Origin: a virus | Lineage: Duplodnaviria > Caudoviricetes | Virus record (IMG/VR): IMGVR_UViG_3300033067_001162 | Location: 1-24,498 of that record | Strand: one strand, 5' to 3' | Length of the DNA stretch: 24,498 nucleotides | Shown here: in pieces, positions 1 to 24,498 of the stretch | How positions within the stretch are numbered: the first letter of the stretch is position 1 | Layout: every line of letters starts with the position of its first letter | Notes under the pieces: model-generated | Told to the model about the DNA's origin: nothing | Database searches by the model: none | Seen by the model: the letters and a program-made list of their open reading frames with translations, nothing else | Made by a program: the position numbers and the translations under genes

Positions 1-977
1 TCAAAAGCCGCCTTGATTTCTGGTGTGACATCACTTGGTGACATCTCGTTGAAACACGCCTGAAGGTCATCGCGCTCATCTGGTGTGATGGATTTGCGAT
101 CACCCAATTGTGTCAACTTGTTGAGAATTTTCAGCATTGGATTGCGAGAATTAAAGATAAAAACCGACGAATCGTTCCCCGTCTCCTTTTGGTGATGGTT
201 GGCTGCTTCATCAACCATTTCTTCTGACGCAAGCAATGGTGTCATTGCTTTGAAGAATGGTCGATTGGTGAACGCACCTCCAATCAACAAATTTCGAACT
301 ACGGAACCCGTTTCTTCGTCTTTTTTTTGGAATACTATTTCGGGAGAAAAGTATTTGTATGCTCATTCAGTGAGCAGTTCTGCACCTTTCTTGGTGAGTT
401 CTATTTTTGCAAACAAGGCATCTTTGCCTTTATTGTATACATCTTTGAACCAACCGAGGGCTTTGTGATTGTCTTCGTGGTTCTCATCGACAGCAAGTTT
501 GATTTTTCTGACATTCTTGTCAAAGTTCGTTTTGACCTCTGACAGTGTTGTTGCAGTTATATTGAGTTTTCAAATCATTGGGTGATTCCAAACTCCCGTT
601 CGCATAATCTGAATATCCACGAGATCACCAGCGTTGAATTTTTTTCCTTCCGCTGGGGCTGTCGGTATATCAGAGAAAAACGCCTGGAAGTGGATTTCAT
701 CGTTTTCGTTGCAGCAGACTTCACTTGGAGACGCTTGATCCTGGACAACGAGTTCGTCAACCAGACTTTCAATCTGTGTCTTCTCCATTGTGTTGACCAG
801 TTCCTGAACCTTTGTGTTCATCACGAGATTTTTCATTCTCCAGAGAACACGATCAAAAGTCTTGGCATCAAGACCTTTGTCATAGATTATTTTCATAATC
901 GTCTCGGCTTGTTTCTGTGAAACTTGTGTCGCATCAGCGAAAGATTTTGATTTTTCCTGGAGTGCTTTTTTGTTCAT
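1..977 (-). CDS. Mu-like prohead protease (gpI/gp32-like), runs off window edge
   Basis: Read through TGA at 570-572: ...LAVDENHEDNHKALGWFKDV...ELTKKGAELLTE(G)AYKYFSPEIVF...LIGGAFTNRPFFKAMTPL, matching Mu protease motifs (H, GW, Y.YxSP, TNxP); no TAA/TAG to position 1. Confidence 0.85.
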
Positions 978-980
978 ATC

Positions 981-1322
981 CTAAATGATAGAAGGTAAAG
1001 TTTCGTCAATGGCAAATTCCGTTTTCTCGTCCGCAGTGGCTATTGCTTGCAACCTATTTTCAATTTGACTTCTCAAATCAAGATAGTGTGACAATGCTTC
1101 GTGTTTTCCAACCACCTTTTCTCTTTGAGAATTATAGATTCCATTTTTTGTTTTGCAAGTCTCATCTTCAATTTGTGACTTTCGTTTGTTGATTCTTTCC
1201 ATCAAATATTCTTCCGCCAATTTCAATGCACCAATCATCGGGAGTTCAAGAAACTCTTGTCCCTTCATTCGGATTTCTACCGAATTATTTTCCTGAAGTT
1301 GAATGGATAGAATTGCCACCAT
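981..1322 (-). CDS. Hypothetical protein (113 aa)
   Basis: ATG with T-rich leader, TAG stop 3 nt before the protease start. Confidence 0.6.
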   Translation of the reverse strand: MVAILSIQLQENNSVEIRMKGQEFLELPMIGALKLAEEYLMERINKRKSQIEDETCKTKNGIYNSQREKVVGKHEALSHYLDLRSQIENRLQAIATADEKTEFAIDETLPSII

Positions 1323-1461
1323 AACTTTTTTTTTGTTTTATAGATTTTGAGACCGCACAGATTTGTGCAAATCAATAGAACGGAATTGTGACTGTGTTTT
1401 TTTCCATATCGACGCATCTCTATAATAATAATATTTACTATATCTATACTATACTATGAGA

Positions 1462-1670
1462 GTTTCTGAAGGGTTTCAGACATCAGAAACATATCAGAAA
1501 CCCAGCAAACCTCTCCAATATAACGACCAATTAAAAATGAGTTTTTCAATCTGTCAATAAATTTTGCATCAAGTGATGAAGATTTGATGCGTTTTCTGTC
1601 GCATTTCAAATGATGCGTTTTTTCAGTATGCAGAAACTATTCAGAAACATCGGTTTCATCTGTCAGAAAC
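1462..1670. repeat. Cluster of TCAGAAAC short direct repeats next to an AT-rich tract
   Basis: TCAGAAAC at 1483, 1494, 1641, 1663, GCAGAAAC at 1630, inverted copy at 1462; TGATGCGTTTT at 1585 and 1611; AT-rich tract ~1419-1458. Confidence 0.6.
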
Positions 1671-4600
1671 TTGACCCCATCGGCTCGAAGAACATCTCTC
1701 ACATACTCTGAAAATGCTGTTTCTTCTGCATTTGCAAGGGCATCTTCGAGTTGTTGGATTCGCGCTTCGTGTTGCTTCTGTCGATTCGGAAAGGTGTTGC
1801 TGTCTTGAAGTGCTTTGAGTTTTTCACGACGGTCTGCCAATTCTTTTTCGATAATCTGAATGGCTGGACTGTTTTTGAGAACAATAGGTGCTTTGAGGTC
1901 TTTGAAGGTGTCCAGCGTCACATTGGCTGGAATGCTTCCAGGAATGCCCGTGAAGTTCGGCTTGAATGTCTCGTCCATCAATATTTCAACCCATATAGAA
2001 CGACAGTTGAAGTGTCGTGGTGGTGAGTAATTGTAAAAATCAGGACTGCCAGCCTTGACGACCCTTCCATCGAGACTTCGACAAATCTCTGTCGTCCTAT
2101 CGTCCAGGATAGCTGAATATTGGAATCACCAAATCTTCTCTGGATAGCGTTCGAAGATAGATGATCGACCAAGATTGATTGAACCAGTTATCCCCAGCGT
2201 TGTCAGAGTAGCTTTGGCAGACGAGAAAACCTTGTCGAGACTTTCAGCAGCAGCCGCAACCGTTTCTGCTGCATTGGTAGCCGTTATCGAACCACCCTTC
2301 TTGGCAATCTGCTGGGTTGCTGCTGTCTTCGCTGACGTTTCTGCCTTTGATATAAGACCAGCAACCACGGCATCGTTCTGGACACGGATTGCGCCAGCGA
2401 CTTCGCGAGCCGTTGGCGGAACCATCACACCCATCTCTGTTGCCGCTGTCTTCTTGCCGATTTCAAAGAGTTCTTTTTGAATGTTGGTCAATGCCTGTGC
2501 TAGATCACCAGCATATTTTGCCGATACAGCACCGAGTGCTTCAATGTTGTTATTCTCAACTGCATTCTTGATTTGTGCCAGAAGGTCAGCTTTCTGTCTG
2601 TCGGTGATCTCGGTCATTTTCTCTTCCAGAAGTTTTGTGAATGCTTCCATTGAGTTTGATAGAGAATCAAAATTGACCTTGCGTTCAGCGAATGTCATTG
2701 CACGAGGCGACTTGTCTTCAAATTTATTTATTTTGAATCCTTTTTTTTTTACCTCTGCGAAGTGAGAGGCGTCAGTGCATTCATTCTGAAGCCTAGTAAT
2801 GAATTGATTATTGAAACAATGAGAAAGTTTCAGATATTCTTCATCGAAGAACATATCTTTGCCAACTCCGTGATGGCAGTGTTCATCGTGAGTGTGTTCA
2901 GGTTCTTCGAAGAGACCTGACGATTTGCGAGTGTTCGCAATCTCTGCTGACTTGCTTTTTGTGGTGTTTGAGAAATCAGTGCGAAGTTTTGCTTGAGTAG
3001 AACGATTGTCTGCATTCTCTTTTGACAGCCCGTCAATCATTGCCTTCACTCCATCGCGCTTTGGGTCTCACTTTGGAAGGTCTGTCAAAGACTTTCGAAG
3101 TTCAACCATCTGCTTTGTGTTGTCCTGGATATGCTGTTTCATTGGTTCAATAGCTGATTGGAGAGTCATTCGACCAGCCTGGAGTTCAGCACGGATTCAT
3201 TTGACCGTTTCTGCAATAGCTGCTTTTCGCTCTTTGATAACAGCAGCAACTTGTTTCCTATCCTGAACATCTTGGCTTCTCAATCGTGTGAGTGGTTGAG
3301 TGACTTTGTTCCTTTCTCCACGGAGTGCGGCAATCTTCTGGTTGAGTGATTTGAGAGAAGCCAGCAGTTGTTTTCGTGCTGGAGTTCCCTTCTTTCATTT
3401 CTGAATGCCAGCCTTCACAGTCTTGAGGTGTTCAATCTCACTGCGCAAACCGTCCGTCTTTGCACGGAATTCTGCATTTGCCTTGTCTATATTGCCAGTA
3501 TGCTCGGCAATCTTCTTGGTGAGTCATTGACTCACAGTCTTGAGGGTTCCGCCACCAGCCTTTTTCAAGGCATCTGAAATGTTCTTCTTCCATTCATCAG
3601 TGAGGTGATCACCCTTGTTGATAAAATCGACAGAGTCTTCATCATCACACGCCATCAAGAGCATTTCTGACATCTCGTCGAAGAGTGATTCGAATTCTTC
3701 ATCTTCCATCTCTTCAGAAGCTGACAGAGTGTCAATCTCTTGCTGAAGTTGGTCAATCACAGCTGACTGGTCTTGTGGTGCTGCATTCGGGTCTGTTGCT
3801 GGAGCGTTTGGGTCAGTTGGTGCATTTGGATCGACGGGAGCATTCGGGTCAACAGCCCCTGGAGTGGCAGAAATCTCACGGGCTGGAAGTCCGAGAATAG
3901 TTCTGAAATGGTCTTCAATGTTTGAATCAGCATTGACGACACCACCACCAACGAGAGAGACGACAGTTTCAGCGAACTTCGCAACATCTGCACCACCAAT
4001 CTTCTCGAAATCAAGTTTTGGATATTGTTTGACATCAAAGTTGAAATCAACCAACTCTGGAATCAGAAATCGGTTGAATACATCAGCAATGCTTTTTGCA
4101 GCAGAATTGAGACACTGAAGGAAAAGGTCTGACTGGTCTTCTGACAATGAACGGCTTCCACTCTTTGTGTCACCAAGTTCGATGAATTGTGCAAGAACAC
4201 CTTTCGCGATTTCTCGATTGTGGTGTTTGATAGATTCGAAGAGATCAGTGCCACTCGAAGCGTGAAGGTCAGCGAATTCGAACTTCCAACCTTTTGTTTG
4301 TGGTCAAGGAACGACGATTCCTGTCTGATCACTAGCACGAATGTTTTTGACGATAGTGAGTGCCGCTGTTTTGTCAGCGTCTGTTGCACCTTCTCCAAGA
4401 TAAATGGTTGGAATACCAACAGACTGGCGTTCGTGACGAACCCCATCAAATCGGTATAGATTGTCTTTGAAAAACCAGTGCTTATAGGCAGAACGGAGAA
4501 CTGAAATTCCTTCATAGTTGTCACCTTCTTTCTTGTTGGTGAACAGAATCAGTTTGTCTCAAGGGATATTGACATTTGACAATCAAGCATTCGGTCAACC

Positions 4601-5203
4601 AACCACATTGGCTGGAACGAGTTGTTCAACTCCTGGCATTCCGTCTTGTGTCTCCCACTTTGTGATGGTTGTCTGTTTTCTGAATGCAATTTTCTTGATG
4701 ATGATATTGCCTTCGTCATCAACGCCCCAAACTTTCTCGAAGAGAGAAAAGCCAAACGCAAAAAAGGTGCATACTTCTTGAAGAAGGTTGTCCCAAGTTT
4801 TATCGAGTTTATTGAAGAGATTATCTTCGACAAAATCTGCTACTTCCCAGGCAGCATCATCTGATTCACCATTCTTGTCTTCTGCTGGCTTCATTCTCCA
4901 CTGTGTCGAACGGATTGGGAGTTCGAGAGCAAGAAGGATTGCAGAGACTTGTGAATCAGTTCGGCGCATCATATCGAACTTCGTCATTCCAGTCTGACCA
5001 GACAGCTCGGAATTGTAGTCTTCCGAGAGAATACCTTGAATGATATTTGTTCCAGATCAACCAAGTTCAGCGTTCATTTGTTCAGCTGACTTTCACGAAC
5101 CACCTTTGTCTTGTGATTTGCTCTTCTGGAGAGAAGCAAATGTTGGCGAAATCTGACTCTTTGTTTTTTCTGTTGCTGGTGTGGTCTTGCCATTCTTTGC
5201 CAT
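1637..5203 (-). CDS. Portal protein (Mu gp29/DUF935-like) fused to a long helical linker and a Mu gpF-like minor head domain, ~1188 aa
   Basis: Single frame from ATG 5203 to TAG 1637 when TGA=Gly (joins track ORFs 4595..4987, 3524..4147, 2126..3049, 1637..1981). Portal motifs EGDNYEGISVLRSAYKHW, HHNREIAKGVLAQF..GSRSLSEDQ; gpF motifs YSAILDDRTTEICRSLDG and PPRHFNCRS. Confidence 0.88.
3782..3852 (-). repeat. Intragenic 4x DPNA(P) peptide repeat in portal fusion linker
   Basis: VDPNAPVDPNAPTDPNAPATDPNAAP. Confidence 0.8.
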
Positions 5204-5221
5204 AGTGGAAAAATAAAGAAA

Positions 5222-6631
5222 CTAGAATTTTGCTGATAAGAAACTTTTGTTGCTGTCAGACTGTCGTTCACTCGGTTTCTGCAAGAATTGTTGGGATTTC
5301 TGAATCGCAACTTTCGCTTGTTTTTGAAATGCTTCGTTCATATTACGAACAGAATCGAAGTTTGCAACTGGTTGACCTAGCTTGACAAGTCAATATCTCA
5401 ATGCGTCAGGTCAGTGGTCTTCACCGTGTGTGTCCATATCCTCCACATTGCTTTTGTCGTGCTGTTGTTCTGGTATAGTTCGAATGAGATTCACACAGTT
5501 CGAAGTGATTTTCAGACTCGAAGTGATCTCTTTCGTGTTTGGGTCTTCATAGGGTTTCAAATACTTTCGCACCGTCAACCAACCTTCCACACGACTGTTG
5601 TCACCGCCTTCAACTCTCAAACCCCATTTTTCCAATTCCTCTTTGCCAGTGACTCAATTCTGTTCTCTCTTCCCGACGATGGCTGGATCAACAATCGTGA
5701 CAGAAATCTTCTCGTCCTGGGTTGTCATCGCCTGGATTTTGATTGCGAGTTCTTTGTATGACATTTCTGGTCAATAAAGTTCACGATAGCAAGTGACCTG
5801 ACCTTGCGTGTCTTGTGCCAGCCAATAGACGGCAGACGGATTTGCATATCAGTAATCGAGACAAACCAGATATTGTTTGGCATTCTTTGGAACGACTGGG
5901 TCGATGATATGGATTGATTCACGAAACTCGGTGAAATACTGACCTTCGAAGACATTCCAATCGCCTTCAAGATATGCCCGTCGTTTCTTCTCTGGCAGTG
6001 CCTGGAGTGCTTCGACATACTGGGGTTGTGTTTCCATCAATATCTGGTTGTCCCAGACGAACGATTGAACGAAGGCATAGTCTTCTGGCTTTTCACCTTC
6101 TTCTGACTTGAAATTTCGGTCAATCCACAGACGCTTCACCCAGGCGTGACCACGACCACCAGGATTGGTTGAACCGAAGAAGTTTGGAATGACACCCTTC
6201 TTGGTGGTTCGGAGTGAGGTCATCAAAATCTTCCACTCTTCTTCCGTCCACTGGGTCAACTCTTCGATGCAGATGAAATCATATTCGATACCCTGGAAGT
6301 TCAGAACATCTTCGAGATTTCGGCAGTATGAGAAACGGAGTGTCGAGCCGTTTGGAAAAGTGATGGTGTTCTTCTGCTGATTGTGCTTGTATAGTTCACG
6401 GGGAAGTTCGTTCTTCATCGGGTTGATCATATTCTCTTCGATCTCTGGCAGAGTGCGACGGAGAGCGAGACCACGAATTTTTGGTCACGACAAGCATTGA
6501 CGAGTGCATTCAGCGCGCATTTCATAGGATTTTCAACCACCTTTCGCACCACCATAGACACGGAACTTCGCAAAGGTATTGGCGAACTCCAGCTGCTTTG
6601 GTTGCAATGGATAGAGGGCGTGTGCTTCCAT
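5222..6631 (-). CDS. terL: Terminase large subunit (469 aa)
   Basis: YGGAKGG(TGA=G)KS Walker A, FICIEELT Walker B, GSTNPGG, nuclease CLDY(G)YANPSAVYW and EDH(G)PDALRY(G); ATG 6631 to TAG 5222. Confidence 0.95.
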
Positions 6632-7338
6632 TATTTTTTCTTTTTAGAGGGTTTTGACTTCTTCTTGACTGGTTCTGGTTTGTCAGACTCTTTTGGGGGC
6701 TGGACGAATGGTGATTGCACCATATTGGCAAACTGGATCGTGATTGCACCAGGATTGGTCAAATTCAGGTCAAGTTTCTCATTGAAGTCTTCAGAGTATG
6801 CCAGGAATGTTTTGACTGCTCACAACTGAATCTTTCCATCTTCATCGTCTGAACTGGCAGCATTCCGAAGTTGCTTCAATACCTTCGGAGTCCATCGTTG
6901 CATTGCTCACTTCAGAAACCATTTCCGCAAGACATCAGTTTCTTCTTGCTGTCTCCATTCAGAGAGGGTTCATTTGTGAACAACATATCTGTCACAGAAC
7001 TGAAGGTTTGTGAGGTCACAACACTCTGGAGAGGCTATGAAGGCAGCAAACAAAATCTTCTTCGGATTCATTTTTTCAAATCTTTGAAGTTTTTTCGCTC
7101 ATTCCGCCATATCTTCAATGATTCACCAGCCTGGGTCTTCTGTGATGGTTGACAGCTTTGTCAATGTTTTCTTATCTTGACTTTTACTACCCGAAAGGTC
7201 TTGTGATTTTTCGGGTTTCTGAAGTGTTTCTGCTTCAGAAACTCCCACATCTTTTTTCTTTGATGGTGGAGTCTTTTGAATATGCCCTGTGATTGGCTTT
7301 TTGACGGGCTTTTGTGTTTCTTTTTTCTTTTGTGCCAT
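6631..7338 (-). CDS. Putative terminase small subunit (235 aa)
   Basis: Immediately upstream of terL with TAATG stop-start overlap; HTH-like QFCDRYVVHK(G)TLSEWRQQ; Lys-rich ends; needs TGA read-through at 7123. Confidence 0.7.
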
Positions 7339-7404: not shown

Positions 7405-7412
7405 CAAGGCAC

Positions 7413-7506: not shown

Positions 7507-8061
7507 TTACTGTTTGTCTGCTGTCTCCAGTGCAATGATTGATTCATTGAGAAGGGAAGCATCTTCGACGCCGCTGATTCCCTGGTTCTGTTCGTCTCTC
7601 CAAGAAGCGATGACAGAATCGAAGCCAGAGTTGAGTGCAGTGAACTGTTCATCATTGAAGGTGATAGACACTGTTGTCTCTCGGAGAGCCTTTCGGTCAT
7701 TCCAGATGACATCAATTTCATCTTCAAGTGCTTTGATTTCTGCTTCCACCGCTTGCTGTGAGTCTGGTCATTCATAAGGTAGAACTGAACCTTCTGTCAG
7801 TTTTTCTCCAGCTTCGAGAAGACGAGCCGAACGAAGTTTTGCTTCGTGCAACTTCTTTTTGTCTGCACGGAGTTTCTTTTTTCCGTCTGCTGGAACTTCG
7901 AGTTGATTTTGTTTGATTTCGAAGTCATTGACCACTGGACGAATTATGTCGATGATCTGTGCGACATTCTTGATGGTCTGGCGTGAATTCAAGAGAATCT
8001 TTGAAACGACGGCATAGAGGTATTGGAGACCAGGATTTGAAATAGTGATAGTGTACTTCAT
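7507..8061 (-). CDS. Hypothetical helical protein (184 aa)
   Basis: Track ORFs 7768..8061 and 7507..7749 are in frame across one TGA; TAA stop; pyrimidine-rich leader. Confidence 0.75.
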
Positions 8062-8088
8062 AGAGTGAGTATAAAAAAGATAAAATGA

Positions 8089-8307
8089 TTATTTGCGAAT
8101 TTCTCGGAGTCTATCCAGAGAAACGATTTTGTCCACTGGCTGTTTGTCAGCATCTTTCCGTTGGCAAACGCCAACGATCACAGCGGTCTGTGCTGTCTCG
8201 TCTACGGAACGAATATGACCTTCCCACAAGTCCATATTCTCTTCTTTGGCAGTCCAATAGACCGACATTCCGACACGCCACTTGGGAAGTTCGAGTTTTT
8301 TTCACAT
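8089..8307 (-). CDS. Small hypothetical protein, SH3/Tudor-like beta pattern (72 aa)
   Basis: ATG-TGA-AAA start: M(G)KKLELPKWRVGMSVYWTAKEENMDLWEGHIRSVDE...; absent from standard-code track. Confidence 0.65.
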
Positions 8308-8308
8308 A

Positions 8309-8521
8309 CTATCTTTTGTGTGAATTATATTCCCGATTGAAGTCCTTCTCGGACATCGAGAGAAGCATTATACCCTGGACGAATGCAATGATCGCTGGAA
8401 TGAGCGTCCACGCGAAGAGGAACATCAAGAGACCAGACGCGGTGCGTCCCAAATAAAATCTGTGTATTCCCAGGAATCCCAGGAAGAATGCCAACACAGT
8501 GGCAGTGCCTTTGTTTTTCAT
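8309..8521 (-). CDS. TM2-domain membrane protein (70 aa)
   Basis: MKNKGTATVLAFFLGFLGIHRFYLGRTASGLLMFLFAWT: canonical TM2 G.HRFYLG motif. Confidence 0.9.
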   Translation of the reverse strand: MKNKGTATVLAFFLGFLGIHRFYLGRTASGLLMFLFAWTLIPAIIAFVQGIMLLSMSEKDFNREYNSHKR

Positions 8522-8613
8522 AAAAGAAAAATAGAAAATAAAGTTTGCGGTCAAACCCCTTGAATAAGGGAAAACAGTATATGTCAGGGACACGAATGTC
8601 CCCAACATCAAAT

Positions 8614-8871
8614 CTAAAATGGCTCGTCTTCTGGTTTGATTGGGGTGTCACGGTAGGCAGAAACTTCAACATCGGTTATGTCAACCCAGAGTTCTTGAAT
8701 TCCGCCGTCCGCCTTCGTCCATTGAATAAATAGACGCGTTGTAGACCGAAGAAACCTCGTGACTGCAATGACCTTCGCAACGACTCCCGTGTCCGAATGC
8801 TTCACTGAAGCACCCAAAATGTCTGGCGTATCACTCATAAAAAGATGATAAATGTCTGGCGTATCACTCAT
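8614..8871 (-). CDS. Hypothetical protein with duplicated N-terminus (85 aa, or 74 aa from second ATG)
   Basis: MSDTPDIYHLF-MSDTPDILG...; TAG stop. Confidence 0.7.
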   Translation of the reverse strand: MSDTPDIYHLFMSDTPDILGASVKHSDTGVVAKVIAVTRFLRSTTRLFIQWTKADGGIQELWVDITDVEVSAYRDTPIKPEDEPF

Positions 8872-8884
8872 AAAAAGATGATAA
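8817..8884. repeat. Perfect 33-bp tandem duplication
   Basis: AAATGTCTGGCGTATCACTCATAAAAAGATGAT x2. Confidence 0.95.
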
Positions 8885-8895
8885 GAAAATAGAAA

Positions 8896-9030
8896 CTATC
8901 GCAGAAGAATCCCCAACACGATCAGAACGACTCCCGTGACAACGACCCAACGACCACCGAGAGAGATCACGACCAGTGCAATTCCAACAACGATTGGCAC
9001 ACTGTGGATCAAGAGGGAAATAATATCCAT
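8896..9030 (-). CDS. Small two-TM membrane protein (44 aa)
   Basis: MDIISLLIHSVPIVVGIALVVISLGGRWVVVTGVVLIVLGILLR; T-rich leader. Confidence 0.65.
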   Translation of the reverse strand: MDIISLLIHSVPIVVGIALVVISLGGRWVVVTGVVLIVLGILLR

Positions 9031-9077
9031 AAAAAAAGGATAGAAAATAAATAGTTTAGAGACATCACGGTCTATGA

Positions 9078-9248
9078 TTATATTCAATGGTTGTGAATAG
9101 CCCCGTCAAATTCCAGTTCGATTCACTCTTCCAAGAGAAAGGTTCTTGATTGCTGTTTCGTGAATCCGTTCTGTTCTTTGTAGTGATCTTCAAGTCTCTT
9201 GAGTTTGTCTGCCGAATTCTTGCTGATTTGAATGGTTATTTTCGGCAT
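9078..9248 (-). CDS. Small putative ribbon-helix-helix DNA-binding protein (56 aa)
   Basis: MPKITIQISKNSADKLKRLEDHY...SRTFLLEE(G)IE: alternating beta strand then two helices. Confidence 0.5.
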
Positions 9249-9580: not shown

Positions 9581-10014
9581 TTATTTTCTAAAAATTACAA
9601 GCATAGAAGGAAACGGTGCAGCATTCTTTGAATCACCGAACTTGAGACGCCCACGAATGAAACGGATCTCAACGCCTGGTTTGTGGTATATGAAATCGTG
9701 AAAATAGCTGGTGTCTGTCCTTGCTGGAATCAGAAGGCAGATCAATAGCACGCCCCCCCCCTCGATTCAGTGAAACATTTCTCGACCCACTTTCTCAAGT
9801 CTCTTCAATATGGGGGATTGCACCAGACTTTTCAGAACCAGGATTGAGCAAGTCAATCGTCGGCAATCGTGAAGAATCGAGCCGCCTTGTGGTTTGTTTC
9901 GTCGGCAGCTGGGTCAAGGTCGAATTCTCAAAACTCAAGTCTCACAGAATCAAAAAATGACTGCGGCGTTGACCACTCATTCGTTTTCGAAGAGAACATC
10001 AATTCTGTGTTCAT
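9581..10014 (-). pseudogene. Phage DNA N6-adenine methyltransferase (Dam-like), frameshifted at a G9 tract
   Basis: N-part EWSTPQSFF...FDLDPAA...DD(G)LAQSWF(G)KVWCNPPY(G); C-part LLIPARTDTSYFH...IRFIRGRLKFGDSKNAAPFPSMLVIF in another frame; ATG-to-TAA span is 434 nt (3n+2). Confidence 0.85.
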
Positions 10015-10381: not shown

Positions 10382-10726
10382 TTACGGAATAAAAGTGTCA
10401 ATCTCAACAAAGAAACATTCCTCTCACGGTTTGCAAATCCTCTTTTCTGCGTCGATCTTGTGAACCTGGTGATCGTTTATTTTGTCATAGACATTCCCGA
10501 AGTGTTCGAATATGCAATCCTGTGCCACTTTCAGAAGGTTGTCGAGATCAGACCTGGTCGAGACATAAAATATCCAGGTCATCTTGTATGGCGGCGGACA
10601 ATCTATTTCAACCTCTCTCAATGCCCGTGCCATATTGTGCATAAATACCTTCTTCTTCGCGGTGCTGTGTCGTCTGCCAGTATAGGCTTCATTCACTGAG
10701 ATTGGTTTGAATTCAAATTTCATCAT
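10382..10726 (-). CDS. rusA: RusA-like Holliday junction resolvase
   Basis: KPISVN, SDLDNLLKVAQD, NDHQV motifs; one TGA then TAA 10382. Confidence 0.85.
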
Positions 10727-11955: not shown

Positions 11956-12486
11956 TTATTTGCAGACACGACGAAGATGCCATTCTGTCTCTGTTTTGAA
12001 TCTGTCTTTGACAAGCTGTCGAACATTGAATCCATAGAGACGATCTGAAATCGTGCCATTGTTGAAAACTTCAGTGTAGTATTCGAAGCATTTCTCCATC
12101 TGCCAAATCGGGTCGTGAAAGTTTTGGTCTTTCAATGTTTCTTTCTGCCAAATGTCATTCCACTGACAGAATCAGTGTGCGTGTCCGTGATCACCGACTG
12201 CTTCTGGGTCAAATTGTGATTCGGCTTCAACCGTCAAAACGAAGTCCATATTGCCTTCAGAGATTTCAAGAGCATTGTGAACATTGGCATTCTCCACGAA
12301 TGTCTTGTCTCTCCAAGATACCTGACGCAAGAGTTTTGTGACTGGATAGGATTCAACCCAGCAATCAGCGACTGGCGCGATTGTTTCGATTGGCTTCTTT
12401 GAATCATCAAACATATTCATCGAAAAATATATGATGGTGAGAATCACTGTGAGAGTGAAGATGATTTTTGGGTGAGTGGGTTTCAT
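11956..12486 (-). CDS. N-terminally membrane-anchored lytic transglycosylase (SLT-like, 176 aa)
   Basis: TM segment IIFTLTVILTIIYF; EAESQFDPEAVGDHGHAH(G)FCQ matches ES..F...A......G..Q SLT motifs. Confidence 0.75.
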
Positions 12487-12817: not shown

Positions 12818-13642
12818 TTACATTTTGTCCCACCAGTGTTCCTTCTTGACCCGCTTGTCTTCCCCAGTGAATCTGACCGTCCTGGAGACTTCTATCAGAC
12901 GACTGGCAATCTGTGCCATCATCATCTTGCCTATGTCTTCCAGAGATTGATTTGAAGTGATGATAATTGGTTTGCGGTTCTCATATCGAGAATTCACCAC
13001 CAAGAAAATCTGTTCCTTCAACCAGTCCGTCGGCTTCTCCATTCCAAAATCATCAATGACGAGCAGATCAACTTCTTTCATATCGTTGAAAAGACTCTTG
13101 TCTGCATTGTCACTGTCAAATGATTTTCTGACTCGGTCAGCGACATCAGAGAATGAAATGAACATCACTTCAACCAGGTGCTTTTCTATGAGTTCGTTGG
13201 CGATTGCTGAAGCAGTGTGAGTCTTTCAAGTCCCAACATCACCCCAGAAATAGAGACCGAAACCCTTTTGATCCATCTCTTCCCAGTTGTCCACATATCC
13301 CTGGCAAATCTCAAGGAGTTTTGGCGCGCTCTTGAGGTCTGAAAGTCTCTTGTCTTGGAATCTATCGGAAACGCCAGATTTTTTCAATGCAGCGTCAATT
13401 TTCCGTCTCTTCCAGATTTTGAGCGATTCCATCTGTGCTGGTGCTTCCAGCCACTCGGTTCGAAGAGTCTGTCATTTTTCACAGTGATCACAGAACCGTG
13501 GCACTTCACCATATATCTGACTCCAAGCTGCTTCATATGGTTCGATTCCATCACGGCAGAAATTACACGGCGACAGTATCATCGGCACTTCATTCTGTGC
13601 TGATTTTTCCTGTGTTTGAATGTCATTTTCCTTGTGGTTCAT
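12818..13642 (-). CDS. DnaC/IstB-like helicase loader ATPase with N-terminal CxxC..CxxC (274 aa)
   Basis: GLYFWGDVGT(G)KTH Walker A, DLLVIDDFGME Walker B, NSRYENRKPIIITSN, RLIE. Confidence 0.92.
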
Positions 13643-14282
13643 TTGTTGAAGAGATTATTTGAATTTCATCGTTCCAGTTTTCGCCGTTGATCCAGGTCAG
13701 AGGATTCTTGATGAATCATTCTTTCCATTTCTTGCTGGTCTTCTGTTTCTCAATGGCTGTGAGTATCGTTGGAAGAAGTGAAGGTTTCAGTTTGAGAAAC
13801 TTTGTCATTGCTTTCTTCTTCTCAACCTTGTTTGGATAGGCAGACCAGAACTTCTCGAAGTCTGCTTCCGTCATCACATCTTTCTTTGGCGGTGATTCAG
13901 TTGGCTTCGGAGGTGTTTTCTCCTGGACATACTTTTCGCGCATTTTTTCGCGCTTCTTCAGCAGAGGTCACAATCGGTCAATCAGGTGCTGACTATATAT
14001 GAACTCTCACTTCTTCTGGAGAAGGTCAAATCAGATATAGAATTCAATGATTTCCTTCAGCAGTTTTTCATCAATCCCGAAGTCTGCTGCAATGACTTGC
14101 ACTTCAGAATCGGAGAGTTCTATCTTGAAATTGTCAGAGTCCGTCAGGTGTTCGAGCAACATACAAAATACTGAATATCCATCAGCACCCCATTTGTTGC
14201 GAGCAACTTTCACGACTCGGTGATTTCGGAGGTTGGTATCGTGAGAGAACCAGTCAGCATTGTTTTTGGTAGGTCTTGACAT
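13563..14282 (-). CDS. Phage replication initiator (DUF4373/Lin1244-like N-terminus, 239 aa)
   Basis: MSRPTKNNADWFSHD...GADGYSVFCMLLE; C-terminal FEKFWSAYPNKVEKKKA...(G)FIKNPLTWINGENWNDE; directly upstream of DnaC. Confidence 0.85.
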
Positions 14283-15622: not shown

Positions 15623-16231
15623 TTAGATGATATTGCGGTTCAAAAGTTCGAAATAGCACTTCTTTGTTGCTTCTATGTCCGCCATCGCATTGTGTGCATT
15701 GTCAAACCCCACTCAAAAGAGTTTTTTGTGAAGTTCGTCCAGCTTCGGATATTTATATCCCTTGTAGTTGCTTTTTATAGCACAGAAGTCAATCGTTGCT
15801 TGCATTGTGCAAAACTCTTTGTCCAGGAACATCTGTTTCCATTCATTCTTGCCTGGTGTGAGATCGAGAGGATAGAGACGATCAAGTTCGATGAAGACAA
15901 TTCGACGGTCATATTCTGCATTGTGACAGATGACAATATCGGCTGTTCGAACCAGGGCTGTGAGCAGTTCAGAGAATGATTCGAATGATGGTTTGTCAGC
16001 AACCATTTCGTCTGTGATACCGTGGACATTTGATGCTTGTTCTGGTATAGGAACGCCAGGGTTGAAATAGAGGTCATTCGAAGTTTCCTTCAAAACGGTT
16101 CCATCTTTCTCATACTCACCGAAAATATATCAGAATTGCACCAGGTGCGGTTGCACTTCGAGAGGAGCGTTTTTGTCCTTCTCAAGAAGTCCAGTTGTCT
16201 CTGTGTCGAAGAAGAGGATTTTTTTAGACAT
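15623..16231 (-). CDS. DEDDh 3'-5' exonuclease (DnaQ-like, 202 aa)
   Basis: FFDTETTG (Exo I), VHGIT, CHNAEYD (Exo II), AHNAMADIEAT (Exo III). Confidence 0.92.
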
Positions 16232-16240: not shown

Positions 16241-17473
16241 TTATTTGATTTCAACAGTTTTTTCACTCTGGAAGATATTCTTTGCAGTCTCAACTGCATC
16301 TTCGACTGGTTCAGACTTCTTTTTCACTGACTTCTTGGCTTCGGTGATTTTGACATCTGTCACTTTGACACCGTCACCGTCCTTTTCAACTGTTGCTTCT
16401 GCCGTGTGGTCTCAATCTGGGTGTCCAGGGTCAACCGCAACCGCTGTTGGTTTCACTGGCTCTTTTGGCTTGAATTCATCAATCTTCATTTCTATCCTTT
16501 GAATAAAGTCGATTGCTTGTTTCTCGGTCAAACCAGTTTCGTCATTGACGATATAGAGTTTCTTGATAGTTGCCTTCTTCATATCGTCCGAAATATCTGT
16601 GCGGTATTTCTGAAGACCCTTTTCATCTCTCTCTTCACCGCGTGTCTCAATGGCTGTCTTCATAAAACGAGACCAGACATCGGCAATCAGCTTGATAGTC
16701 TCTGGGTCGATGCGTTTGTCGCCGATACCCTTTGGAACAACAGCCTTGAAGCCTGGTGGTGCATATTTCTCTTCTTCTGGTGGTGCTTCGTGTTTGGCAA
16801 CGACACATTCTTCACCAACACAGATTGAAGACATCAGCTTGACCCATTCAGAGAAGTCCAGGCTTGGATTGTCTGTCTTCAGTGGAGCAAGACGGTTCTT
16901 TGTGGCAAGAACAGCGTGTTCTTTCACGACCATATATCTTTCTCCAAGAGTCTTGTCAATATCTAGGTAGCCAACGACATCACAAGCAGCTGCAATCTCT
17001 GTGGCAGACTTTCCATTCAATGATGGATAGATGCGGACGATAGTGTCTTCATCTTTCTCAACATTCTCTTGCGCCAAAAATATGCAGTGCATTGGGAGAT
17101 CACGGAAGTCACGAATGACTCTCTTGATTTTTGTGGAGACCTCTCCCCAGTCATCGCGACGAATAGCACGGTTGTTCTTCTTCTCGATCTCTGCCTTGAT
17201 GATTTCATTGATCTCGGTGATCGAGTCGATGATGATGGTTTGATAATCGTGTTTTTGTGTTTTCAAATAATCGTGAGCGTCCTGAAGGTCTTTCAGTGAA
17301 CGAATGACGACAGCATCGGGGTTTTTATCTGCAATAGAAAGCAGACCAGCTTCAGCGGACAAGAACAGCGGTTTTGGAGCAGTAGACGCGAAAGTTGTCT
17401 TTCCCGTTCCTGGTTTTCCGAAAATGAGTGCTTTGATAAAATGGTCTTGTGGCTTGAATTTGACGATTTGCAT
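16241..17473 (-). CDS. Sak4-like AAA (AAA_24) phage recombination ATPase with long C-terminal tail (410 aa)
   Basis: ALIFGKPGTGKTTFA, SAEAG, TIIIDSITE, AACDVVGYL, KNR motifs. Confidence 0.88.
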
Positions 17474-17496
17474 AGTGGGGTGTGGGGTTGGAAATA

Positions 17497-17772: not shown

Positions 17773-17797
17773 AGTAAAAAGGATAAAAAATAGAAAT

Positions 17798-18034: not shown

Positions 18035-18089
18035 AGAATAGTGGGGTTAAAAGATAGGCACGAAAGAACAATATTGAAAACCAGAATCT

Positions 18090-18234
18090 TTGCAAGTATT
18101 TTTTGCACGACTTTGCCAATGATTGCACATATTTGCATATGTAATTTTGAGACTTTGGCTTCTGCAAGAGGTTTGTGCAAACAGTTGCAAACAGTTGCAA
18201 AAGATTTGACAAGCCGAAAAGAGTGTGGCACACT
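18090..18234. promoter_or_regulatory. Divergent promoter region with 10-bp-phased TTGC arrays
   Basis: TTGC at 18103, 18113, 18123, 18133; TGCAAACAGT x2.6 at 18176-18201; plus-strand TTGACA(18206)-17 nt-CACACT with TG extension. Confidence 0.6.
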
Positions 18235-18339
18235 ATGGGTGTTCTATCAATAACCCCACAAAATATGAAATCAAAACCACCCTAGCGAATTTCTGCCGTC
18301 AGAAAACTGTCAGAAACTCTATTTCCTCATTCAGAAACT

Positions 18340-18603
18340 ATGTCACATCAAATCCAACTCGTCGATCAACACCCAACAAGGGAAATCGCATTCCGCAAAT
18401 ACCAGGTCATCAAACGCCAGGACGGATTCTTCAGCACAACAACAGAAGTGATATTCAAACCAGAATATTTCAAATCTGTTGACCGTATACAGTCAGAGCA
18501 AAGAAACAGCATTCAGGAGAAACGCCCGTTCGGTCATTCTCTCTTCTCTTCAGTGAAGGTCGCCAATATCCAAATCAACGGCAACCTTCGTCTGAAGTTC
18601 TAG
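18340..18603 (+). CDS. Hypothetical protein (87 aa)
   Basis: ACT-ATG start, TAG stop, first gene of the only plus-strand operon. Confidence 0.65.
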   Translation: MSHQIQLVDQHPTREIAFRKYQVIKRQDGFFSTTTEVIFKPEYFKSVDRIQSEQRNSIQEKRPFGHSLFSSVKVANIQINGNLRLKF

Positions 18604-18638
18604 TTATCATCTTTTATCATTTACTATCAAACCCCACT

Positions 18639-19334
18639 ATGAACACATTCAATCCAACATTCTCTGGACACCGCACTATTCGTTCAATTATCTGGTCAAA
18701 GGTACTCGACAGCATCGAAAGCATATCATTGCTTGAAATGTTCATCAATCTCGGTCTCGGTGTCGTCTCTGGCTGTGCAGCATATGCACTGATTCACCCA
18801 GACCACGCCCAGGCAATAGCACAAGCCATCAATGAATGGCACAATTACGCCTTCGCAAAGACAGTTCTTTCATTCGGAATCCTTTTCAATGCACGCAAGA
18901 TATATCACATCATCAAAATATTGGTCGCTAGACACGCGAAACAAGTTCCGACGGGTGAAACCCTTGAAGGAATCCCAATCGTTGAAATTCTCGACCATCT
19001 GTTCGAATTCCAGAGCTTCAAGCGCGACGACATAGAAAAGAAGTTCTGAATCCCACGAAATCGGTTCACTGACCTTGCACAGAAACTTGAAGAACTTGGA
19101 ATCCTGGCAAGAGGTGAGAACAATGCCCGTGTCCTCAATCCTGAATATAGCCGTTCCGACATCGCTTCAGTTCTCCAGGGTGCTGAACGGTCTGGTGACA
19201 TCAACAAAGTGTTCCGAGAGGTCAAACCAAATTCATTCACAAGCGAGCCGACTGGAAAGACTATCTTGGAGAGAGTCAAATCGTTTCTCTCCCCTTCCCC
19301 ACGGTTCACACCTCACAGAATCGGCGAAGAGTAG
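18639..19334 (+). CDS. Membrane protein with C-terminal FtsK-gamma-like winged helix (231 aa)
   Basis: CCCCACT leader; two hydrophobic segments; FKRDDIEKKF(G)IPRNRFTDLAQKLEELGILARGENNARVL resembles the FtsK gamma pattern; TGA at 19047 read through to TAG 19334. Confidence 0.65.
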
Positions 19335-19354
19335 AAAACCGCTGCGGCACTGGG

Positions 19355-19404
19355 TGCAACGGTCAGACAACCGCTTTGCAACCCACGGACAACCACTGGA
19401 CAAC
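19355..19404 (+). repeat. Five (TG/GA)CAAC units at exact 11-bp period
   Basis: TGCAAC 19355, GACAAC 19366, TGCAAC 19377, GACAAC 19388, GACAAC 19399. Confidence 0.7.
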
Positions 19405-19432
19405 AAAAGAATCCCCAAACGGGGATTCTTTT
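19405..19432. terminator. Bidirectional intrinsic terminator between convergent operons
   Basis: AAAAGAATCCCC-AAAC-GGGGATTCTTTT. Confidence 0.88.
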
Positions 19433-19560
19433 TATACACTTAGCAACAAAATGGATAGAAAAACATTTGATTGAAGCGGAAAGGTCGGTTCACTTATTTC
19501 GTTGCAAATTACACTTAACAACAAAAGTTTGTTCACATTCAGTGTCGGTCACTATACAAA

Positions 19561-19842
19561 CTATCCTAGTTTGTTCACTTCTGTCACTGACTGTGAATTT
19601 GATTCGATTATTCGAACAAAGTATTCATAGAAGAAAACGGCAGATCAAAATGTCTGTGCAGAGAATGCAGCAACTTGTGCTTTGATAACTTCATCAGCAA
19701 AATATTGATATGCAGTGTATGCAGTGGCAGCAACGAGAACAAAGATTGCGAGAACAAGCCTATTTGATAGACCAGAACGCTTTGAAAACTGTGTCAGAAC
19801 GGTGATGATAGCACCGACGAATATTGGGGCAAGTGTCTCCAT
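19561..19842 (-). CDS. Putative holin (93 aa)
   Basis: Small protein with 2-3 hydrophobic helices, last gene of the late operon, next to a peptidase. Confidence 0.65.
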
Positions 19843-19866
19843 AGTAAAAGGGGTAAAAAATAAAAA

Positions 19867-20739
19867 CTATTTCTGATTGACCAGGTATCGCAAGATTCAG
19901 ATTTCTGTGATTTCCTTCGTGATTCCTTCGCTGTCATTGTAGTTGTTGAAGAGTGGCAATTTTCCAGTTTGCATTCGGAGATCAATCAGGAGTTGAGAAT
20001 ATGGAGAGTTTGCAGTGTATTCCAAACGCTTCTTGTTCTTCAATGCTTGATATGCAGCGATTGCAGCTTCATCACGAGCGTCAGCGATTGCATAAATGGT
20101 GTATAGACCAGTCATTTCATCGAATGGAATGTCAAAATATCCATTATTGTCACCATATGAATTGATACCTTTGAAAGTCTTCTGTGCAACATCGACATCG
20201 ACACCAGCCGCGAATGCGTGACCAACAATCTGACCATCAGTTCTCTTGCTATATATCTTTTGTTCACGAACAGCAGTCCAGTTTCAGTTGTTCGAACCAG
20301 AATAGAGCCAATGACCGCGCATCACTGCATCAATCATCGCGTCTATGGTTCCGACGCGAGAATATCCAGCAATGAGACCTTCAGCAATCATTTGATTGAG
20401 TGCGGATTGAAGGGAATCACCATCTTTCTGAACAGACGGCTTTTCAGCAATTCTTTTCTGCCAGAGGACTTTCGGATCGGTGAAGACTGCTGGCTTGCCA
20501 GACAAATCACTTTCAACAATATTCTGTGCATTATTGATATTCAAAACACCCTGGCGAGTACAAGACATATACATCAGCGGATCAGCACCCTGGTTTGGTA
20601 TATGGACACGACTATATGGAAACTGAACTTTCACAACTGGTGCAGTATCACCAAAAACGAGTTCGGAATATTCCAAATCTCGTTGGTCTGGTTTGTCGAG
20701 TGCGGCACTTGGCGGCATCTGGATCAAAATATCGTCCAT
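19867..20739 (-). CDS. Papain-like (C1-type) cysteine peptidase, candidate lysin (290 aa)
   Basis: PNQG...MSCT (Gln/Cys), VGHAF (His), INSYG..GYF (Asn); joins track ORFs 20284..20739 and 19897..20115. Confidence 0.8.
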
Positions 20740-20765
20740 AAGTGGGAGGATAGAAAATAGATACC

Positions 20766-21053
20766 CTATTCAGTGGGTGTTGGTGTTTCTTGAAGTGCAG
20801 CAAGTTCAGCTGCCTTTCGATCAGCCTCTCTTTTTTCTGCATCAATCTGGCGTTGTTCAATAATCTTTGCATTATCTCACTTTGTCTGGCTGTCAATTTC
20901 ACCATCGACAACTTTTGTGTCATACTGTTTGCGAATCTTTTCATATTGAGCATCTGTCACATCAATAGTCTTCGCCTTTTCAGCTTTGTCATATGGCTGG
21001 AGAGAACTTTCAGTGATGAATCAATCTTCATCAATTTTGATATAGAGTTTCAT
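20766..21053 (-). CDS. Small tail-fibre-associated/chaperone-like protein (95 aa)
   Basis: MKLYIKIDED(G)FITESS...; follows fibre gene; CCCACT leader. Confidence 0.55.
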
Positions 21054-21065
21054 AGTGGGAAAAGG

Positions 21066-22286
21066 TTAGTCAGTAATTTCAGCAAATCAAGTTCCTGTCG
21101 TTTTCGTGACAAATACTGTCAGCGTTGTTTCTCAATAGTAGTCCATTTCTTGAAGAACAGAAGTGGAAAATGGTGTCATATTTCACCAGTTATTTGAATC
21201 AATTTTGAATATGACTCCACCACCAGCAAGATTTGAAAATCAAACTTTTCCAAGACGCTTTGCGGATCAGGTATAGAATCAAAAGAATGATATTCCAGGG
21301 GTACCAATGGTTGTGGAATTCCTGAACTGCCAAATTCAGTTCGTCAGGTCAACAATTGGTCATTGCAAAAGGCTATTCGACAAAGCTCAAAATGATAAAC
21401 CAGACAACGATCATATTTCCGCAAGACTTGTATTCAATATTTTGGTGATTGTATTTTGCTTATTGTGGAAAATAACATTTCACGAAATTTCTCAAAAGAC
21501 TTGGTCAAACATATAAGTTATTGCTGACCAGGTGTCAGTGTTTCCATCAAATTTCAGACAAACAGAATAGTTTCACTTTCTGAAAAGATTGTAGAATTTG
21601 TCAAATGATGCACCAGCACCTATTGCTGGGCATTTTTGCAGATCACCAGCACCACCAAACACTTCTGTTGCATAAGTATAGCTTGAAATATTATCATCTT
21701 GAACAGTAGTCACACTTGATGGCAATGCACCACTTGTGAGAGAAGACCAAGAACCAGAATACTTTCGACCAACATCACAAGTGTATGGTGAAGCCGTGAG
21801 AGAATAAAAGGCATAGACAACAGCACCTTTTGCAAAGACTCGGTTGAGATCATAGGACGCAACAGAAGGAACTGACAATGCAGTTCCTTTTGTGGCTGTG
21901 GTTCCTGAAATACTTATTGGATAAACATCATTGACTGCAAAAGATGCAGAACCACCAGCATCAGAACAGAGAAGGTGAAAGTTTGCTGACTGTGCGCCCT
22001 GGAATGCTGCAAATCTCGGTGCAGAAGTGAATGTTCCAAAAGAAGAAAGTGTGATTGGAGTGAGCGAACCAATATTTCAATTTGTGTCATAAGTGTATCT
22101 GTCAATCTTCAACCACGGAGAAGCAGAAAGACTTCTGACAAAGTAAATATATTTATTCGAATAATCAAACCACTGTCAGACCGTGGTGTTGTCGTGCAAA
22201 TCGGTCAAAATATATTGACCTTCTGCATCAACACGAACTGGTGTTGTATATACGCGCTTCGGTTGGCTGGTGTTGAGAACTAACAT
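21066..22286 (-). CDS. Putative tail fibre/receptor-binding protein (406 aa)
   Basis: Continuous beta/Ser/Thr/Gly-rich frame with about 15 TGA codons; position at distal end of tail module. Confidence 0.7.
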
Positions 22287-22307
22287 AGTTTATAAATAAA
22301 AAAATAA

Positions 22308-22880
22308 TTATGATTCAACCGTTCCCGTCAGGTTTCAAAGTGCATTATATGTCATAGTCCAGGTATTTGAACCGTTCGTGATTGTCTTGACTTGTCTATT
22401 TCTATTATATGTCAAAGTGAAGGTGACAGTGTCTGCATCGAAAGAAGTCAGCAATCCTTTTGTATATGTTGTCGAAGTGATATTGTCGAAACCACTTGCG
22501 CCCATAACTCAACCGACAGCATCGTTTCTCCATTTTGTGATTGAAGTGACAGCACCAGAGACGGTGACGACGATTGCAAGGCGAGTATAGTTGGCATTCC
22601 AGGCACTTGTGGAGACCTGAATCGTTCCAGTGGAATCAATCTGCACATAATTTGTTGCATTGTTTGTCATCGCGACAACACCACCAGCATAGTTTCATTC
22701 TGTGCTTCCGACTCGGTATGTTCCAGCACCAACATTCACATTCAAAGCAGAAGCGGCATAGACTTTCAATCGGTCTGAACCAGCAGAATAGAGATCATCG
22801 AGATCAGAATTGAATTGATTCATTCGAGTTGCCGTGATGGCATCGGCGACAGACCAGGTTGTTGAATTGAGTCTTGGCAT
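22308..22880 (-). CDS. Tail/baseplate structural protein (190 aa)
   Basis: W...DAITATRMNQF N-terminal motif typical of fibre/baseplate proteins; short YD-like C-terminal repeats. Confidence 0.7.
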
Positions 22881-22914
22881 AAATGAATTGTAGTTTTTAC
22901 GCTATAAAAAGCAA

Positions 22915-23532
22915 CTAGGTTGCAGAACTGATTGTGATTGACGCGTTGATTGAAAGTGTTTCGTTGACCGATATGGTTTCATTCATATTGATGCGAGAGA
23001 GCAGATACCCACTATTTGCCGAACCAGTACCATCACAGAAAACTCACGCTTCGAGATAGGTATGTCAAGCCACTTCAGTTGTCGTGAAGTATTTGTCCAA
23101 ATAGGCAACTTCAAGAACTCTATATCGGTTCGTGAATAGTCATCTGACGGTTTCTGTTCCAAGTTGCGTGTCTGTTGCTGCTGGAGTTGTCGAACTGCTT
23201 CAGAGTGCGATATAATTTGCGTTGAATGTACTGGCTGGACTCGTGCCAGTCAGAAGGGTTGCAAACTGGTATCGAAGAACCTGTGGAATGATATTGTGTG
23301 CTTCAAATATCTTCAAGTCTGATTCAAAATTTCCTTGATAATTCCGAAGAACCTTTCCGAGAAATTCCAGAGTCTCTTGATGCTTGTTCTGAAGACGCTG
23401 AATGAATAGTTCAACATTGTGAACGCTTTCTTTCAGGTGTAGTTTCTCAACCAAAATCCTGGCGAGAGTTTCGTCAGTTGCTTTGGTGATCTTCCAGTTT
23501 GGTGTGATGATGGCGACTTTGTCGATTTTCAT
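22915..23532 (-). CDS. Baseplate/tail-collar-like protein (205 aa)
   Basis: YIAL(G)SSSTTPAATDTQLGTETVR and EA(G)VFCDG...GYLLSR motifs. Confidence 0.75.
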
Positions 23533-23541
23533 ATTTGTATT

Positions 23542-24498
23542 TTATGAGACTTGAGAAAAACCACAATAGGCATCATTCAACGATCAACCTTCAGTGAAGG
23601 TGAGAGTGTAGGCATATTGACCAGTGCGGCTGTGAGCATAGAAGACTTTGTTTTTGTGTGTGAAAGTGAAAACTTCTCCCCAAGTCATCACTTCATCTTG
23701 ATTTTTCACAATGTCCACTTGCTCGTTGACCTCAACAGTCAAATCATCTGTCTTCTTGATAAGCATTTGAAAGAACTCTATGATGCCGAACATTGTCGAA
23801 CCAGCAGAAATTTTATATTTCCACTTCTCATTGTTTTTTGAATCCTTCGTGATTTTCTGAATCAAGAAATCATCATCAATGCCACGGCTCGAATCAATAA
23901 TATGAATAATTTGTCACGCTGACAATCCATCAATTTCTGTGGTGAAATCTGCCGTCAAAATGGCGTTTGCATAGTTTTCAATTTCTGCTCTTGCACGAAG
24001 ACGGGCTTCATTCCAGTCTTTGATTGACGCATCTGTCACAACAGCACCTTCGAAGATACCATCACCACCAAGCAAGGCTTTTGTGGCAAGAATAGAAGTG
24101 GCATTCTCCACACGAACTCTGATTGGTTTGTATGGATAATAAATGCGCTTGAAGAGAGAGCCGACGGGAAGAATGGAAGCAGTTGACCTTCTGACAACTT
24201 TTTCCTGGAAGTTGAAAAGATATTCAAATGATGCTGGATCATCGAGATTTTCCACACCGACAGTCTTCTGAACATAGCTTGCACCAGTCCCAGTGGTATC
24301 GACCCAAATCTGCAATGATTTTGCTTTATAGTCCAGATTCCAAGACTCTTGTTTTCCATCACAAACTTCGACTTGAGTATAGAGGTTTGAATCAACCGCT
24401 TCACCACCACGAACGGTTTGTCGGTTCTTCAGCTGTGAAATATCTGCCGTGATATTCAAGTCTGAATAATTCATTGAAGTATCATCGAGATCAAACAC
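23542..24498 (-). CDS. Tail protein (hub/Tal-like), 5' end outside window
   Basis: LKNRQTVRGG, EARLRARAEIENYA, DGLSA(G)QIIHI...FLIQKIT; joins track ORFs 23914..24498 and 23584..23865 to TAA 23542. Confidence 0.75.

Follow-up and report, generated by a model that had tools for sequence, protein, structure and literature searches.

The present study suggests that a tailed phage known from metagenomes reads TGA as a fifth glycine codon in all phases of its growth and depends for this on its host. Specifically, the stretch analyzed here (the window; 24,498 bases, positions 1 to 24,498 of IMG/VR record IMGVR_UViG_3300033067_001162) makes up 24.5 kb of an approximately 39-kb tailed phage that uses TGA as glycine throughout and likely infects a code-25 host among the Gracilibacteria, a reading that we hold at a probability of about 85%. 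TGA as glycine is the genetic code of the Gracilibacteria and Absconditabacteria (SR1). The window has 42% GC and carries nearly all of its genes on the minus strand; 37 genes could be delimited, which occupy 90.9% of it, and 30 of them contain a total of 96 in-frame TGA codons, alongside 334 GGN codons. The complete genome is represented by G001, a record of 39,057 bases rated 100% complete by CheckV and more than 99.9% identical to the window throughout. Beyond the window, G001 contributes genes for a major head protein of Mu-like type, for a holin, and for a tape measure, as well as connector and tail genes. Together with the terminase and portal in the window, the major head protein and tape measure place the phage in the Caudoviricetes. 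Two further records, G002 and G003 (80% and 76% identity in the terminase large subunit, TerL), and the locus L214 have gene order and recoding in common with the window. The phage is contained wholly or partly in 13 sequencing runs from five studies, several of them recorded as riverine, and no RNA datasets were among the matches listed. In four of these runs, contigs aligned to positions 4500-24498 cover the whole stretch with 18 single-letter differences.

The meaning of TGA was established by masking this codon in the proteins of the window and aligning them to 13 related records or loci. Of the residues opposite TGA, 104 are themselves encoded by TGA; the other 269 comprise 123 glycines and no tryptophan, against a background of 1.4% glycine opposite other codons. 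None of the 72 aligned TGA positions faces any tryptophan, whereas TGG faces tryptophan in 306 of 444 cells and is never opposite TGA. TGA is therefore glycine and not tryptophan, as it would be in code 4, and the claim of the sequence-only reading to this effect, together with the comparison of homologue columns that it proposed, is borne out. That reading also named six sites at which TGA falls on a conserved glycine. All six are in-frame TGA codons on the minus strand, with first bases at 6535, 5851, 13228, 9807, 12174, and 23202, each two bases higher than the position it had given. Conservation as glycine holds overall and can be followed at five of the six. In the TerL Walker A column (6535), 119 homologues have 100 glycines and 17 tryptophans, and in the TerL nuclease column (5851) they have 86 and 33. 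The TGA in the DnaC Walker A motif (13228) and that in the lysozyme-like gene (12174) are each replaced by GGN in four of four relatives, and both the DD-X-L and the NPPY-X sites (the latter at 9807) of the methylase have glycine opposite them in three of three standard-code homologues. At 23202, the two relatives that can be aligned both also have TGA. Two of the seven TerL TGA codons lie in poorly conserved columns (positions 49 and 287) and one in a mostly alanine column (407); these three are neutral on the glycine reading.

Public gene calls of the window's own and related proteins (P0001-P0003) do place tryptophan at TGA sites, as would be expected if TGA were tryptophan. However, these tryptophans fall in glycine columns, where the DNA of G002 and G003 has TGA, and in the TerL homologues that bear them they are scattered across glycine columns. 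They thus look like products of table-4 translation, and by this measure 41 of the 119 homologues, about one-third of the best terminase matches in public calls, appear to be mistranslated. Nor do the TGA codons have the character of decay or sequencing error: no in-frame TAA or TAG breaks the genes, and the 18 differences among the four runs leave the TGA codons untouched and include no GGN/TGA strain polymorphism. With tryptophan opposite TGA in none of the 269 cells, we consider both code 4 and an origin in decay or error virtually out of the question.

Coding density, a further check that had been proposed, agrees. Stop-to-stop frames of at least 300 codons cover 8.4% of the window under table 11 and 78.8% with TGA open, while opening TAG or TAA instead leaves coverage at 8.4%. 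This gain is inflated, because TAA and TAG are scarce in every frame (TA dinucleotide ratio 0.38), but 20 controls generated under a dinucleotide model reached a mean of 15.8% and a maximum of 27.6%. The difference surpasses the gain of more than 10% in coding density under code 25 used by Liu et al. (2023), although it was computed on frames and not with their gene caller. Under table 11, only 2,904 of 7,459 codons would be translated ahead of the first TGA. All 35 genes whose stop can be seen terminate in TAA (20) or TAG (15), as predicted from the sequence alone, but this follows of necessity when TGA is treated as a sense codon. As a separate observation, avoidance of the TA dinucleotide is strong across the window and stronger than in the sampled stretches of candidate hosts; TTA accounts for 5 of 549 leucine codons, and GTA occurs 19 times.

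The features of the window are as follows.
3..977, minus strand: Mu-like head maturation protease/scaffold (PF10123, phrog_328), cut by the window edge, 516 amino acids in G001; 2 TGA
1637..5203, minus strand: 1188-amino-acid fusion of a portal with a Mu gpF-like head protein (PF06074, PF04233, phrog_113); 11 TGA
5222..6631, minus strand: terminase large subunit (PF03237, PF04466); 7 TGA, among them those of Walker A (6535) and of the nuclease LDY-G (5851)
6631..7338, minus strand: likely terminase small subunit, by position, with no family match; homologues adjoin terL in G002, G003, L011, and L096; 5 TGA
7507..9030, minus strand: five small genes, one of them encoding a TM2 domain (PF05154), located upstream of terS; 2 TGA in total
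9045..9081, minus strand: intergenic 37-nt word, conserved in relatives, with a 4-bp dyad that encloses a 6-nt center; a candidate for a regulatory element or an att/dif-like site
9581..10014, minus strand: phage Dam-type N6-adenine methylase in two frames (phrog_111 on both halves); 4 TGA, including NPPY-G (9807)
10382..10726, minus strand: RusA-like resolvase (PF05866 slightly below cut-off, phrog_34); 1 TGA
11956..12486, minus strand: lysozyme/transglycosylase-like protein with an N-terminal hydrophobic stretch (weak PF18013); TGA at 12174
12818..13642, minus strand: DnaC-like helicase loader (phrog_50, PF01695); 2 TGA, including Walker A (13228)
13563..14282, minus strand: replication initiator with a Lin1244-like N-terminus (PF14297, phrog_2562); 6 TGA among 12 glycine codons
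14307..15612, minus strand: HTH_17 protein (PF12728) and two genes of no family; 10 TGA
15623..16231, minus strand: 3'-5' exonuclease (PF00929, phrog_192); 2 TGA
16241..17473, minus strand: Sak4-like single-stranded DNA annealing protein (PF13479, phrog_124); 1 TGA
18340..19334, plus strand: two genes, the sole plus-strand pair, with no family match and about 90% identity in G003; 1 TGA among 17 glycine codons
19561..21053, minus strand: small membrane protein, 290-amino-acid protein with no family match, and 95-amino-acid protein; 5 TGA
21066..24498, minus strand: four genes of the distal tail region, located after the tape-measure gene in G001, the last of them truncated at the window edge; 24 TGA, among them that of YIAL-G (23202)

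The two codons CGA and CGG separate the two code-25 groups. Arginine is the residue opposite CGA in 260 of 351 cells and opposite CGG in 48 of 70, and tryptophan faces neither codon in any of the 421; CGA makes up about 24% of the arginine codons of the phage and sits at a TerL column that is arginine in 119 of 119 homologues. According to Shulgina and Eddy (PMC8629427), both CGA and CGG are predicted to encode tryptophan in Absconditabacteria, where they are rarely used, and CGG is predicted to do so in some Gracilibacteria. The arginine meaning of these codons therefore points away from Absconditabacteria/SR1 and toward Gracilibacteria, so that the earlier suggestion of either group stands as regards a code-25 host and is narrowed as regards its identity. 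Infection of Absconditabacteria, which likewise read TGA as glycine, would accord with the description by Liu et al. (PMC10746230), in which most of the clearly recoded phages were assigned to that group, and with the Absconditabacteria signature (tryptophan at glycine columns plus arginine at tryptophan columns) in 17 of 119 TerL homologues, two of which are close to the TerL of the window. Given the frequency and placement of CGA, however, we judge an Absconditabacteria host to be quite improbable. The meaning of CGA and CGG can thus assign code-25 phages to one host group or the other with no need of spacers.

Within the Gracilibacteria, we infer that the host belongs to a mid-GC (37-43%) clade. 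A phage contig with a Sak4 homologue at 40% identity is binned with the recoded genome G117, which belongs to the same class as the Peribacteria. All five sampled genomes of the order of G117 contain in-frame TGA and just one class-I release factor, whereas Peribacteria genome G004 has two class-I release factors; in the synthetases of the sampled members of that order CGA, where used, faces arginine or lysine. These release-factor, TGA, and CGA traits suggest that the order corresponds to Gracilibacteria proper. Codon use in the phage correlates at 0.59-0.72 with that of eight mid-GC members of this recoded order, whereas the five low-GC members sampled give 0.44-0.55 and a pair of nonrecoded genomes 0.52-0.54; the comparison left out G162, which gave too few codons, and the short stretches of G448, G409, and G426.

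Several observations weigh against this assignment. The codon-use comparison drew on a single stretch from each genome, 20 kb long at most, with rough picking of open reading frames. The search for CRISPR spacers or prophages that the sequence-only reading had called for gave no match: there was no spacer-like exact match among the matches listed for 401 genomes of the class (searched with positions 4500-24498) or for 81 genomes of the family (searched with the whole window), with incomplete genomes and two to three candidates scored per genome, and neither a host chromosome nor an integrated copy was found in either set. The host thus continues to be deduced and not matched. A TerL search of the 401 class genomes gave four matches, none with TGA. 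The best match in a Genome Taxonomy Database (GTDB) genome comes from a standard-code Candidatus Peribacteria contig (57% TerL identity); it is a prophage free of TGA and also ranks first among the named prophage relatives. The next TerL matches of bacterial-chromosome type in GTDB are at about 42% or less. In a quick TerL tree, two proteins bearing the Absconditabacteria signature and two that show no sign of TGA are among the nearest outside neighbors. One recoded relative, L012, lies on an 11.6-kb contig in a Marinimicrobia metagenome-assembled genome; the release-factor loci of that genome are not recoded, and the contig is probably misbinned. Lastly, 81% of the genes contain TGA, slightly below the average of 90% that Borges et al. 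describe for code-25 phages.

How TGA is distributed among the genes bears on whether the phage follows the code of its host or switches codes during infection. The sequence-only reading held that early and late genes are both recoded, and the counts agree: TGA makes up 30 of 107 glycine codons (28%) in early genes and 54 of 255 (21%) in late genes (p = 0.17), the classes being assigned from gene function and position. The replication initiator, the Walker A motif of DnaC, and an excisionase-like HTH gene are all recoded. With the initiator and the DnaC Walker A motif recoded, there is therefore no standard-code phase from which to launch a code switch. At the other extreme, the major capsid gene of G001 and a neighboring virion gene (L005 8960-10560) use TGA for 0 of 38 glycine codons (binomial probability 7e-5). 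The aligned parts of the capsid genes of relatives have TGA at 1 of 39 glycine codons in G003, 2 of 41 in G002, 0 of 34 in L096, and 7 of 38 in L012. This avoidance is the opposite of the late-gene enrichment that Borges et al. describe in code-switching phages, and the phage likely uses the code of its host while avoiding TGA in its most abundant proteins.

A standard-code host in which the phage switches codes, as proposed for Lak, crAss-like, and Agate phages, would be in keeping with the TGA-free state of close terminase relatives, among them the prophage in standard-code Peribacteria. No tRNA was detected (ARAGORN, RF00005) in the window, in a scan of the full G001 record, or in G002 and G003, which bears out the claim that no suppressor tRNA is present, although unusual tRNAs can escape detection and, as Borges et al. 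report, only 35-40% of switching phages have a suppressor tRNA that is detected, which makes the blank scan weak evidence against a switch. Recoding of the earliest genes, including six TGA codons in the initiator, and the lack of TGA enrichment in late genes argue against it more strongly, as does the description by Borges et al. that phages whose code differs from that of the host reassign only TAG to glutamine or TGA to tryptophan. We therefore regard a code switch as very improbable indeed. The proposal that the phage relies on a code-25 host is instead favored by the similar TGA rates of early and late genes and by complete relatives free of detectable tRNA genes. In such a host, tRNA-Gly(UCA) would be supplied by the cell, which would lack release factor 2, and no code switch would be needed during infection; TGA may then have built up as a near-synonym of GGN and been selected against in the most abundant proteins, those of the capsid. 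In a standard-code cell, the replication and packaging genes would be truncated.

Code-25 phages have been described (Liu et al. 2023; Borges et al. 2021; RSA-ATP1), and the phage in the window adds another. Liu et al. (PMC10746230) describe code-25 phages and prophages of Gracilibacteria and Absconditabacteria that resemble it in dense in-frame TGA, a large gain in density under code 25, and portal, terminase, and tail genes readable only in that code. Host assignment there relied on CRISPR spacers or integration, whereas here the host is deduced from the meaning and use of codons. By their account, only 4 of 38 spacer-linked Gracilibacteria phages over 20 kb are clearly recoded; the present phage, which may be listed in their tables (Zenodo), thus joins a short list of clearly recoded probable Gracilibacteria phages as a complete and widely seen member (G001, with relatives G002, G003, and L214). 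RSA-ATP1, a phage of Absconditicoccaceae (bioRxiv 10.1101/2024.03.08.584096), is likewise described as a 39-kb tailed phage with code 25, no integrase, related prophages, and internal UGA in most genes (60%). However, it encodes four tRNAs, one of them a UGA suppressor, and has been linked to Absconditicoccaceae, whereas in the present phage no tRNA was detected and CGA and CGG encode arginine. The code-25 gut phages of Borges et al. (bioRxiv 10.1101/2021.08.26.457843) have TGA in about 90% of genes and were also read as host-matched, while the code-4 and code-15 phages in that account have hosts of standard code and carry their recoded stops mainly in genes for structure and lysis, unlike the even use and capsid avoidance observed here. 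Further Patescibacteria phages are reported in PMC12911398, the consulted parts of which contain no code analysis, and among the papers listed in our literature searches, of which those cited here were read, none was seen to sort code-25 phages by the meaning of CGA and CGG. The Peribacteria G004 prophage (L011, L222-L224) has the same head module and gene order (TerL 57%, portal-gpF, protease, and capsid about 50%), with its host-phage junction between the replication genes and terS. It differs in its standard code, the absence of TGA, and a recombinase gene of its own, of serine type as judged from its sequence.

Three code states occur among the terminase relatives. Of the 119 TerL homologues, 78 have no sign of TGA, 23 have TGA only, 17 have TGA plus arginine at tryptophan columns, and one is unclear. 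The third state, in which TGA is glycine and CGA/CGG are tryptophan, was confirmed in the DNA of L098, whose TerL gene has 20 TGA codons and no TGG. On the quick tree of this one gene (81 rows: the query, 69 of 120 matches, and 11 loci), the three states interleave (homologues P0002-P0120), and the TerL clade of the window, with P0002 and P0003, falls in a group of support 98 with the two Absconditabacteria-type and two TGA-free proteins, whose code states were read from the proteins. On this one quick tree, the odds that codes changed repeatedly within the phage family are about even. The interleaving offers a way to study how fast recoding follows a change of host.

A second line of inquiry concerns the 37-nt word at 9045-9081, which lies directly past a stop codon and about 25 nt ahead of the next ATG. 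The word is kept in G003 (35 of 37 positions), G002 (30 of 33), and L214, and in G002 one pair of its dyad is altered on both sides. In five of seven runs compared, from three studies, a foreign contig (1,071, 1,697, and 234 bases in X2, X4, and X6) with constant flanks carries 36 of the 37 letters, and the position of the word is that at which the Peribacteria prophage has its host-phage junction. As described in PMC3025954 and PMC2958812, dif is a 28-bp site of two 11-bp arms round 6 bp, with more than four pairs between positions 7-12 and 17-22. By eye, the word matches the Bacillus subtilis dif of PMC3025954 at 14 of 22 arm positions, and its four dyad pairs are one below the threshold given there. 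Tyrosine or serine recombinases (PF00589, PF00239) were found in none of five records, including G001-G003, and this integrase-free state fits an element that integrates through the Xer system of its host. The word could be an attachment or dif-like site, but it could equally be a promoter or operator common to another mobile element.

The word was found in none of the 401 class genomes. In 204 genomes of the order, one match with two mismatches and one with three were no more than a reversed-pattern control gave, and the exact core did not occur; a search of viral contigs for one of the foreign contig's flanks gave no match. An Rfam scan gave seven matches with E values of up to 5, all far below gathering scores and none at 9045-9081. 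An identity as a CRISPR spacer was rejected, since the two flanks of the word are not a repeat. Several unrelated viral contigs (L215, L217/L231, L220/L235, L221, L240) also have the core of the word in the gap separating a stop codon from the start that follows, and its outer pairs are preserved there. Three extra pairs were present in 7 of 92 distinct contexts of the core, against 1.6 by permutation (58 of 64 parts scanned); however, three of the seven are the members of this phage family from which the pattern was defined, and the remaining excess (4 of 89) is weak, so that a motif widespread in unrelated viruses was likewise rejected. A more ambitious model would have the family move among hosts of three codes, rewriting its codons, with the integrase-free member lysogenizing Gracilibacteria through the dif-like site and host Xer, and the contig that shares the word being host chromosome. 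We consider this improbable as a whole; repeated code changes alone are likelier than the joint model, in which the Xer part is the weak link.

The methylase has the NPPY-G TGA reported before but is additionally broken by a frameshift: the gene goes out of frame at a run of nine G near 9753-9761 in the window and G001, where L214 has 11, and the X4 and X6 contigs end at this run. The tract suggests phase variation or, alternatively, an effect of assembly. Two functional labels from the earlier account fared less well. The SLT label for 11956-12486 depends on a Pfam match below the cut-off (E 0.0014), and "baseplate" for 22915-23532 was not confirmed, as the gene matches only PHROGs of unknown function. 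In a collection of cultured phages, the best named TerL match has 36% identity, and the 22915-23532 protein has no match. The 290-amino-acid protein within 19561-21053 is presumably peptidase-like, judging by a sequence motif. The plus-strand pair at 18340-19334 separates the early arm from the late arm, a position at which immunity or integration genes would be expected in a temperate phage. In the head-tail region of G001 (L005), positions 5237-7120 encode a 627-amino-acid repeat protein that is rich in cysteine and glycine and has no PHROG match, and a gene with a thioredoxin domain (L005 4692-5219) adjoins it. Finally, a contig in one run (X4) has a change from a glutamate codon to TAA at window position 14836, within the gene at 14753-15385.

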